Part shown: positions 1 through 3,000 of the stretch, piece after piece
How positions within the stretch are numbered: the stretch's first letter is position 1
How the letters are laid out: each line of letters begins with the position of its first letter
Assembly: GCF_003334385.1 (NCBI RefSeq)
Contig: NZ_QOWN01000030.1
DNA from: Escherichia coli
Lineage (GTDB): Bacteria > Pseudomonadota > Gammaproteobacteria > Enterobacterales > Enterobacteriaceae
DNA: 57,197 nt
Direction: 5' to 3' (one strand)
Program-made: the position numbers

Positions 1-3000
1 AACGCGAGGCATCGTCTTAACGAGGCACCGAGGCGTCGCATTCTTCAGATGGTTCAACCCTTAAGTTAGCGCTTATGGGGAGAATCCCCAGGTTATCTGG
101 AAAAAGATAAACATTACAGAGAAGCCGATGCGGCTTTACTTAATGTTATTTATCCTACAAATCTTTCAAAGATAAACACCAGAAGAAAAGAGCAAGTTCT
201 AAAAATAGTTAAAAAACTAGCAGGTCCGTATGGTATAAAAAGATACGAGAAGGATAATTATCAGTCGGCAAATTTTTGGTTCAATGATATTAAAACCGAT
301 ACCGATCAAAATTCGCATGCAAAAAGAGAAAAGAGCTTCATTCCATCAACAGAAGCAGAATGGTTTTTTGACTCATGGTATGCAAAATCAGCAGCAATTG
401 TTTATAAAGAATCAAGAAAAGAAGAGTATTTGAATGACTCAGTACAATTTATGAATAGATCATTGGCCCAAATAACAGGCGAGAATATGATTGGTGCAAA
501 TGGCAGGAGCGTACCAGAAATGGCACTTCCCGAAAGCTATAACTATATCCACAAGTCGGGAACTTTGCATGAAGCGCCAAGCCCTATCATTCCGCTAAAT
601 TGGTCGAAAGCTTCAATGACTCTCATGTTGAAAGAGATGTCCAACCTTATCAATGATGAGGGAATTAAATAGTTTTCATAATGAGTTACAGCACAACGTT
701 GGGTATTGACTGAGCAAGATGAACGACAAGGACAACGACATCAGCCTTATGAGGAGCAAGAAAATGAAAGCAAATTCGAAAACGATCAGAAGGATGAAAG
801 TTAATGTTCGGTCTGAGGAAAGTAAATCGAAACACTCATACGTTTGAAACCACTTTTCAAAATTGGAAAGAAAATGGCGAAGATGTTGCATTATTAATGC
901 CCGAATTTAGTGCTAAATGGCTACCGATAGCAGAAGAGAGTGGCAGCTGGTCTGGATGGGTATTGCTTGGAGAAATATTTCCCTTAATTTCATCTGAGCT
1001 CGCTGGGATGGCTTTAATGCCAGAAACGGAAAGGTTAATAGGGGAATGCCTCAGTTTATCCAGTTCCCCGTTAAATCTAAAGCATCCTGAACTAAAATAT
1101 AATCGTTTGCGCGTAGGTAAAGTATTTGATGGAGTATTGAGCCCTGCTCAACCACTAATAAGAATATGGACAGGGGAATTGAATCTTTGGTTAGATGAAG
1201 TCACAGTCTGCCAATACGGAAACGCTCCAGCGTTAGACAAAAAATCGTTATATTGCTCCATTCATTTTGTAATTGGATTTAGTAAAACATGTTACAGAAG
1301 TCTTGTTGATATTGAAGTTGGTGATGTTTTATTAATCTCAAATAATTTGGCTTATGCGGTTATTTATAATACAAAAATTTGTGATTTAATTTATCCAGAG
1401 GAGTTAAAAATGGCTGATCATTTTGAGTACGAGGAAGATTTTGAAACAGATGATTTTGATATCAAAAAAAACGAGAGTGAGATTTATGATGAAAATGACG
1501 ATCAGATGATTAATAGTTTTGAAGACTTGCCTGTAAAAATTGAGTTTGTTCTTGGTAAGAAAATAATGAATCTATATGAAATAGACGAACTCTGTGCAAA
1601 AAGAATAATATCTCTGCTTTCTGAATCTGAGAAAAATATAGAAATACGTGTAAATGGCGCGCTAACTGGCTATGGCGAACTTGTTGAAGTGGATGATAAA
1701 TTGGGCGTAGAGATTCATTCTTGGTTATCAGGGCATAATAATGTCAAATAGCATTTCGCTGATAGCTATACTATCATTATTTACACTATTGCCGTTTATA
1801 ATAGCATCCGGGACATATTTTATTAAATTCTCGATTGTTTTTGTTATTGTCCGAAACGCGCTGGGGCTTCAGCAAGTGCCATCAAATATGACACTTAATG
1901 GGGTTGCTTTGCTATTGTCAATGTTTGTAATGATGCCGGTTGGGAAGGAAATATATTATAACAGTCAGAATGAGAATCTTTCATTCAATAATGTAGCGTC
2001 GGTTGTTAATTTTGTTGAGACAGGCATGAGTGGTTATAAATCATATTTGATAAAATATTCCGAACCGGAGTTGGTTAACTTTTTTGAAAAGATTCAGAAG
2101 GTGAATAGCTCTGAAGACAATGAAGAGATATTCGATGATGATAATATTTCAATTTTCTCGTTACTCCCGGCATATGCGTTGAGTGAGATAAAAAGTGCAT
2201 TTATTATAGGTTTTTATATCTATTTACCCTTTGTTGTAGTGGATCTGGTTATATCCAGCGTTCTGTTAACGTTAGGTATGATGATGATGAGTCCGGTAAC
2301 CATATCTACACCGATAAAATTAATTTTGTTTGTCGCGATGGACGGTTGGACAATGTTATCAAAAGGACTCATTTTACAATATTTTGACCTATCCATTAAT
2401 CCCTGAGGAAAAAATATGGACGATATTGTTTTTGCAGGGAATAGGGCGCTGTATCTGATTTTAGTTATGTCTGCAGGACCTATCGCAGTTGCGACATTTG
2501 TTGGTTTATTAGTAGGGCTTTTTCAAACGGTAACACAGTTGCAAGAACAGACGTTGCCATTTGCGTGAAATTATTATGCGTAAGTATTTGCTTTTTTTTA
2601 ATGAGCGGATGGTATGGCGAAAAATTATATTCTTTTGGTATTGAAATGCTGAATTTAGCATTCGCGAGAGGATAGCATGGGTGAGGCGATACTCTATCAG
2701 TTGCATAGTCTGCTGGCTGCTACAGCGCTCTGTTTTTGCCGATTGGCACCCACTTTCTATTTGTTACCATTTTTCGCCAGTGGGAATATACCAACAGTAG
2801 TCCGTCATCCAATAATAATAGTGATATCATGTGCATTAGTTCAGCATTACCACTATGAATTATTGAACTTAAATGAAATCGATATTGCTTTGTTCGCTGC
2901 CAGAGAAATTATCATAGGGCTGTTTATTGCATGCTTATTAGCATCCCCGTTTTGGATTTTCCTTGCTATAGGTAGCTTTATCGATAACCAACGCGGTGCA

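Follow-up and report, generated by a model that had tools for sequence, protein, structure and literature searches.

A chance open reading frame over the eivJ-epaO junction of a decayed ETT2 island in Escherichia coli and the apparently reversed pseudogene calls of epaO

Which of the overlapping reading frames at the start of epaO encodes the N-terminus of the EpaO protein? The question is raised by a stretch of 57,197 nucleotides (hereafter the window) from the Escherichia coli contig NZ_QOWN01000030.1 (RefSeq assembly GCF_003334385.1), a piece of E. coli chromosome with a decayed island for type III secretion system 2 of E. coli (ETT2). A preliminary description of the locus had pointed to an open frame in frame 2 that runs from about position 719 to a stop at 845-847, over the epaO start at 804 and in a different frame, and had noted that the epaO frame itself is blocked upstream by a TGA at 795-797. 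It proposed that the frame-2 peptide may be the true N-terminus of EpaO (SctQ), in which case epaO would also carry a frameshift near 840, or else that the frame is the tail of an upstream gene. All of these coordinates proved correct in our open reading frame (ORF) listing, and the TGA is present in the sequence. We are highly confident in the following explanation as a whole: the region is made up of the tail of eivJ and of epaO starting at 804, the frame-2 ORF is a by-product of the two, and the loss of the A at 838 in O157 is a derived state. All features described below lie on the + strand.

Judged from its sequence, epaO in the window is not frameshifted and stands in the ancestral register, as an intact 315-aa ORF in frame 3 (804-1751, MFGLRKVNRNTHTFETTFQNW... 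from ATG 804). Its native start region (790-806) consists of a Shine-Dalgarno-like AAGGA at 790-794, a 9-nt spacer and the overlap TAATG at 802-806, in which the stop codon TAA of eivJ (802-804) shares one base with the ATG of epaO (804-806); the TGA that closes frame 3 lies two codons before this ATG. In the intact islands of Escherichia albertii (L004 and L005), the SPAN gene (291 aa) ends at base 3001 and the SpaO gene starts at base 3001, again with a one-base overlap. The junction there reads ...QKDES and a stop, TAATG and then MFGLRHIDRDKH (MFGLR...), preceded by the same AAGGATGAAAG(T/C)TAATG architecture. No indel was found between the window and E. albertii over 694-1000, so that the two are in the same register, with 15 of 28 residues identical in frame 3. 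Across 807-1000, substitutions at frame-3 positions 1/2/3 numbered 20/14/33 against E. albertii and 5/0/12 against E. coli strain 1424KP, which has ∼93% DNA identity to the window, a full eiv region and the A at 838.

The protein comparisons point to the same start. A public protein search with the 315-aa product returned two large clusters of E. coli proteins of 315 aa (4734 and 2322 members) as well as E. albertii EpaO proteins of 303 aa, at 50% identity and 100% coverage. In the protein alignment, all of these begin with MFGL(R/Q) (MFGLRHIDRDKHALEITCKNWK in E. albertii versus MFGLRKVNRNTHTFETTFQNWK in the window), and the MFGLR start at the equivalent of 804 is also found in a divergent E. 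coli lineage (90% identity); an N-terminal extension, MKANSKTIRRMKVNVRSEESKSKHS, occurs only in the 328-aa form of O157:H7. Against the NCBIfam SctQ profile NF006018 (303 positions, cutoff 223 bits), window residues 2-315 scored 489.5 bits over profile positions 3-303, and TIGR02551 (cutoff 100.8) matched at 194.3 bits. The O157 protein aligned with NF006018 from residue 13, leaving 12 residues outside the profile. Residues 243-309 matched the SpaO chain 4yx1_A (E = 1.2e-14) and also YscQ-C 3uep, corresponding to the C-terminal FliN/SpoA-type domain, and cluster relatives of EpaO have precomputed Pfam matches to PF01052 and PF26304. The gene lies directly before epaP, epaQ, epaR and epaS (1741-4574). 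Family models, C-terminal domain, conserved start and operon context are thus all those of the SctQ / YscQ-HrcQ-SpaO family. GenBank lists both 315-aa forms as ordinary proteins: OWD68602.1 is one of the entries identical to the window protein, and the name 'type III secretion protein EpaO' is given to the 1424KP-type protein, which occurs on at least 1000 contigs. With E. albertii, the divergent E. coli and NF006018 all starting at the equivalent of 804, the proposal that SctQ truly begins with the frame-2 peptide has to be abandoned: intact homologues start at this position with no epaO similarity upstream, and the similarity that does exist upstream is to eivJ, in frame 1. We infer that epaO starts at ATG 804 and that this start is the one used.

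The DNA immediately upstream, at 685-804, is the 3′ remnant of eivJ, which encodes the SpaN/EivJ needle-length determinant. In frame 1 it comprises the last 39 codons of the gene (VTAQRWVLTEQDERQGQRHQPYEEQENESKFENDQKDES, followed by the TAA at 802-804) and has no in-frame ATG. In ungapped comparison with the C-terminus of EivJ, 33 of 36 residues were identical in 1424KP and 21 of 36 in E. albertii, whose full-length eivJ gene carries PF02510 (SPAN). Substitutions over 694-801 numbered 10/7/15 at frame-1 positions 1/2/3 against E. albertii, and five of the seven against 1424KP fell on frame-1 third positions, which are the second positions of frame 2. The NCBI prokaryotic genome annotation pipeline (PGAP) annotates a 3′ fragment of the SpaN/EivJ gene at 685-804 in near-identical genomes. 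Searched alone against NCBIfam, the 39-aa remnant gave no match, a query of this kind, like the 42-aa frame-2 peptide, being either too short for a match or not a real protein. The start codon and N-terminal region of eivJ are missing, as homology to intact islands begins only at ∼677-685 and is preceded by the tail of pkgA; the stretch is a remnant of eivJ, not a gene. The alternative that an upstream gene ends here was therefore right for the DNA of 685-804 and wrong for the frame, since eivJ is read in frame 1 and not in frame 2.

The frame-2 ORF itself (719-847) has 42 codons (MNDKDNDISLMRSKKMKANSKTIRRMKVNVRSEESKSKHSYV, stop at 845-847), covers the end of eivJ and 14 codons from the start of epaO, and so overlaps the 315-aa epaO ORF in a differing frame. 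In the six frames of the 57-kb window, 215 ATG-initiated ORFs of at least 42 aa were counted, 147 of them 42-99 aa in size, and real genes are far fewer; under a simple base-composition model, any given 46-codon stretch is open by chance in 4-8% of cases. Since ORFs of 42-99 aa are abundant by chance, this one is not statistically unusual. Its peptide had no family match in NCBIfam at E ≤ 0.1. Neither conservation of the ORF and peptide nor a third-position bias was found: frame 2 of E. albertii runs into an early stop (...FATH), with 11 of 28 residues identical to the window peptide, 15 of the 32 substitutions against E. albertii over 694-801 fell on frame-2 second positions, and only 1 of 17 over 807-847 fell on frame-2 third positions. 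Such a concentration on second positions is the opposite of a coding signature in frame 2. The ORF is a chance ORF, a non-coding by-product of two real reading frames; it is what results when the eivJ tail, purine-rich and rich in Glu/Gln/Asp, is read in +1 together with 14 epaO codons, and very probably has no selected product.

A single base distinguishes the register of the window from that of O157:H7. In a nucleotide alignment with the window, 1424KP and strain JNQH497, which is 99.9% identical to the window, O157:H7 has lost one A at 838 (CACTCATACG to CACTC-TACG). Among complete genomes, 1843 had the window-type 68-mer over this site without a mismatch, and 307 (O157:H7 and relatives) carried an exact copy of the 67-mer with the deletion. 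The O55:H7 strain DEC5B also has the 67-nt span, and 68 nt were found in 35 of 35 other full-length sampled rows, including a divergent group of 335 genomes; A838 is kept in about 90% of the E. coli genomes carrying the region. Because the base is present in E. albertii and 1424KP, its deletion in the O157:H7/O55:H7 lineage is the derived state. The native ORF of O157:H7 is truncated after 12 native codons (MFGLRKVNRNTL..., with a stop 20 codons later), and the deletion joins frame 2, from ATG 764, to the epaO frame, giving a read-through coding sequence of 987 nt and 328 aa. The epaO gene of strain Sakai (ECs3726) is reported as 987 bp (PMC3977695), and it has been described as carrying a stop codon relative to enteroaggregative E. 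coli (EAEC) 042, with the Sakai allele treated as the mutated one (PMC7058095). Two ST69 isolates reported in that paper may be rare independent cases. The frameshift suspected near 840 thus marks a real indel site, but the base was lost by O157:H7 and epaO is not shifted in the window. A sequencing error at 838 was rejected, the exact 68-mer being common to 1843 complete genomes, as was programmed frameshifting, for which no slippery site exists at CACTCATACG and which is needless given the conserved ATG 804.

Several observations weigh against the start at ATG 804, some of them in favor of a competing account, in which EpaO truly begins with the frame-2 peptide from ATG 764 and the window allele is a pseudogene with a 1-nt insertion near 838. 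At this alternative start (751-766), GAGGAG at 751-756 is followed by a 7-nt spacer and ATG 764, a strong motif and a better Shine-Dalgarno arrangement than the AAGGA and 9-nt spacer of ATG 804. O157:H7 has its continuous 328-aa ORF from the equivalent ATG, and its form scores slightly higher on NF006018 (505.6 versus 489.5 bits). RefSeq/PGAP starts epaO at this ATG and calls the window-type allele, 764-1751, a 'frameshifted' pseudogene in JNQH497, 1424KP and strain G8, and calls the O157 allele intact, an annotation with which the preliminary proposal agrees; furthermore, we found no experimental evidence on where translation of EpaO begins. The higher score of the O157 form is probably due to 14 lineage-specific substitutions in the window protein and not to the N-terminus. 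A frameshifted pseudogene should differ in register from its outgroup orthologues, and the window is in register with E. albertii and 1424KP over 838. Given also that the MFGLR start is kept at 50% overall identity, that NF006018 lacks the 12 extra residues, that frame 2 closes early in E. albertii and that the Sakai allele is regarded as mutated in PMC7058095, we regard the start at ATG 764 as very unlikely to be the original one.

Less probable still is a real small gene in frame 2, whether the whole ORF or its 27-codon part from ATG 764, or an upstream ORF whose translation would modulate the initiation of epaO. The Shine-Dalgarno-like GAGGAG would suit either, and E. albertii has an ATG at the same position as 764, with frame 2 open for 34 codons. 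On the other hand, E. albertii carries GAAGAA in place of GAGGAG and a different stop position, and the lack of a family match, the faster divergence of the frame-2 peptide than of frame 1, the second-position substitutions and the chance abundance of such ORFs all speak against a product. The least probable of the accounts considered is a structured or small regulatory RNA, suggested by a sub-threshold Rfam match at 796-909 to Bacteroides BTnc005 (18.7 bits, where the gathering score is 174.8; E = 0.069). This match is far under threshold and comes from an unrelated phylum, two codon-constrained frames explain the region fully, and a permissive Rfam scan of 500-1100 gave nothing else. In a promoter and terminator scan of 400-1000, two promoter-like sites were found against 1.6 expected from shuffled sequences, and no terminator-like site.

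With epaO starting at ATG 804, the pseudogene calls take on a different meaning. We consider it quite probable that the 328-aa EpaO of O157:H7 is a frameshift chimera that gained 25 frame-2 residues via a fortuitous GAGGAG-ATG, a loss of start masked by out-of-frame ORF capture, and that the PGAP flag is reversed in the four of four annotated genomes checked, a situation that probably recurs across RefSeq. The RefSeq reference protein derives from this chimera, and PGAP therefore flags the ancestral 315-aa allele as 'frameshifted', an artefact of the annotation. If so, a survey that sorts ETT2 into intact and degraded by its PGAP flags would put epaO into the wrong class in most strains. The practical value of the analysis lies in this annotation point, that epaO pseudogene calls in RefSeq E. 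coli appear reversed. Its biological weight is small, as this decayed ETT2 isoform has been described well, everything seen here falls within known ETT2 decay, and the ORF is noise.

The eivJ remnant owes its upstream boundary to a deletion. On the left flank lies the 3′ end of a remnant of pkgA, a glycoside hydrolase family 15 (GH15) gene, at 430-672 with a stop TAG at 670-672, as identified from the ORF list, the RefSeq annotation of near-identical genomes and collinearity with O157:H7 (L006). Up to 685 the window is collinear with the pkgA end of L006 (offset +7323), and from 685/686 with its eivJ tail (offset +16060); k-mer mapping and a three-way comparison gave a deletion of 8,737 bp, in which ECs3735, eivF, eivG, eivE, eivA, eivC, eivI and most of eivJ were lost. 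The deletion junction (677-685) lies within a short direct repeat, present in O157:H7 as CATAATGAG (left copy) and CACAATGATG (right copy). By megablast, the 400-1800 stretch was found in 3300 of 5426 complete E. coli genomes, chromosomal in all, and 17 of 30 evenly sampled matching genomes resembled the window in matching without a break over the junction, from the end of pkgA through to epaO. In the full-island genomes O157:H7 F8797 and 1424KP, similarity starts at ∼677-680, with eivJ, eivI, eivC, eivA and others upstream. The eivJICAEGF fragment is known to sit between small direct repeats (PMC5422975), and an ETT2 isoform with an 8.74-kb deletion has been published (PMC11068852). The eivJ gene varies in islands that retain it: in F8797 (3254-4129 of L002) it is broken up into a hypothetical protein of 77 aa and a SpaN/EivJ protein of 189 aa, in 1424KP the split is a different one, and in E. 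albertii it is a single 291-aa gene; a poly-A-tract indel hotspot in eivJ has been reported (PMC11068852).

Taken together, these comparisons suggest the following course of events. In intact islands, the eivJ stop overlaps the epaO start as TAATG, an arrangement typical of translational coupling that, judged from SPI-1-type operons, probably couples the two genes, and epaO would be read from the ATG after AAGGA to give a protein starting with MFGLR. A deletion of ∼8.7 kb between two short direct repeats joined the pkgA (GH15) end to the last 39 eivJ codons. In the window strain, where eivJ has no upstream in-frame ATG and the operon has lost its upstream part, the coupling was presumably lost, and epaO, if expressed at all, would need read-through together with the AAGGA in front of it. 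In O157:H7/O55:H7, the loss of A838 cut the native ORF and lets the fortuitous ATG 764 read into epaO. We infer that epaO is without function in the window strain, as the genes for the secretin, gate and ATPase (sctC, sctV and sctN) are deleted and epaQ and epaS are frameshifted, so that the EpaO product cannot function.

The window EpaO differs from both O157:H7 and 1424KP at 14 residues where those two agree; W82C, W151C and P152S are at positions conserved in E. albertii too. These substitutions are consistent with relaxed selection after the eiv deletion. Inside epaO, GAGGAG at 1398-1403 is followed by a 6-nt spacer and ATG 1410 (Met203), which falls in the alignment region of the internal start reported for the C-terminal product of Salmonella SpaO; of the Salmonella sequence used here, the C-terminus agrees with PDB 4yx1, and the argument for the epaO start rests not on it but on E. 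albertii, the divergent E. coli and NF006018. By analogy, an EpaO-C-like internal product is plausible in intact islands, and tandem translation is mentioned in PMC7058095. Alleles named 'EpaO2' that encode 190 aa, such as that of E24377A, are likewise present in GenBank.

Further decay surrounds the locus. The gene order in JNQH497 is the pkgA/GH15 remnant, the SpaN/EivJ 3′ fragment, epaO, epaP, epaQ, epaR and epaS, with the epr, org, yge and yqe genes after them. At the very start of the window (1-89), collinearity with JNQH497 is lacking over the first ∼76 bases, which are multi-copy in E. coli, at up to 23 places per genome, plasmids included. An IS4-like IS421 (IS186-type) insertion sequence (IS) element, inserted in the pkgA/GH15 remnant, has its 3′ end here, with the flanking target GGGGAGAATCCCC at 77-89, which resembles the GC-rich palindromic targets of IS186. 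Downstream, epaQ (SctS, 2416-2676) has lost one G after 2562 (TTTGGCGTG to TTTGCGTG) in comparison with JNQH497, leaving ORFs of 50 aa and 36 aa; its intact product is 86 aa in JNQH497 and O157, and the split is either a private frameshift or a sequencing error. The epaS gene (SctU, 3453-4574) is shifted near 4146 after ...KRRER and reaches a stop at 4184, giving 243 aa versus 373 aa in O157:H7, and is flagged as frameshifted by PGAP in JNQH497 too. ETT2 has decayed further and independently in related genomes: in JNQH497 the lytic transglycosylase gene (L001/L007, 10734-11431) carries an IS1A that the window does not have, and in strain G8 (L008, 3264-4207) an IS1A truncates epaO, with a deletion through to yqeK.

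In comparison with known systems, the window locus has ∼97% DNA identity to that of O157:H7 Sakai (ECs3726, WP_001303644.1), whose 328-aa 'EpaO' takes its first 25 residues from what in the window is the frame-2 peptide read from ATG 764; unlike O157:H7, the window keeps A838, frame 2 ends at 845-847 and the native start at 804 is intact. Its closest counterpart is the ETT2 EpaO of EAEC 042-type islands and E. albertii, homologous to SpaO of pathogenicity island 1 in Salmonella (SPI-1) and encoded at the same place before epaP, epaQ, epaR and epaS; for EAEC 042, our comparison drew on 1424KP and on published work. Like ETT2 EpaO, the window protein of 315 aa begins with MFGLR, has a SpaO_N domain and, at the C-terminus, two domains of FliN/SpoA type, and it exceeds the cutoffs of both NF006018 and TIGR02551, but its island lacks eivF through eivJ, so that no working injectisome is possible. 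The junction with eivJ shares the ...QKDES tail and TAATG with E. albertii, as at the eivJ or invJ (spaN)-spaO junction of SPI-1-type type III secretion operons, except that only the last 39 eivJ codons are kept. Finally, the deletion has the same size and short direct repeats as the published ETT2 isoform without eivJICAEGF (∼8.7 kb), from which nothing material differs, the window adding the IS421/IS186-type insertion in pkgA and the private epaQ frameshift, if the latter is real.
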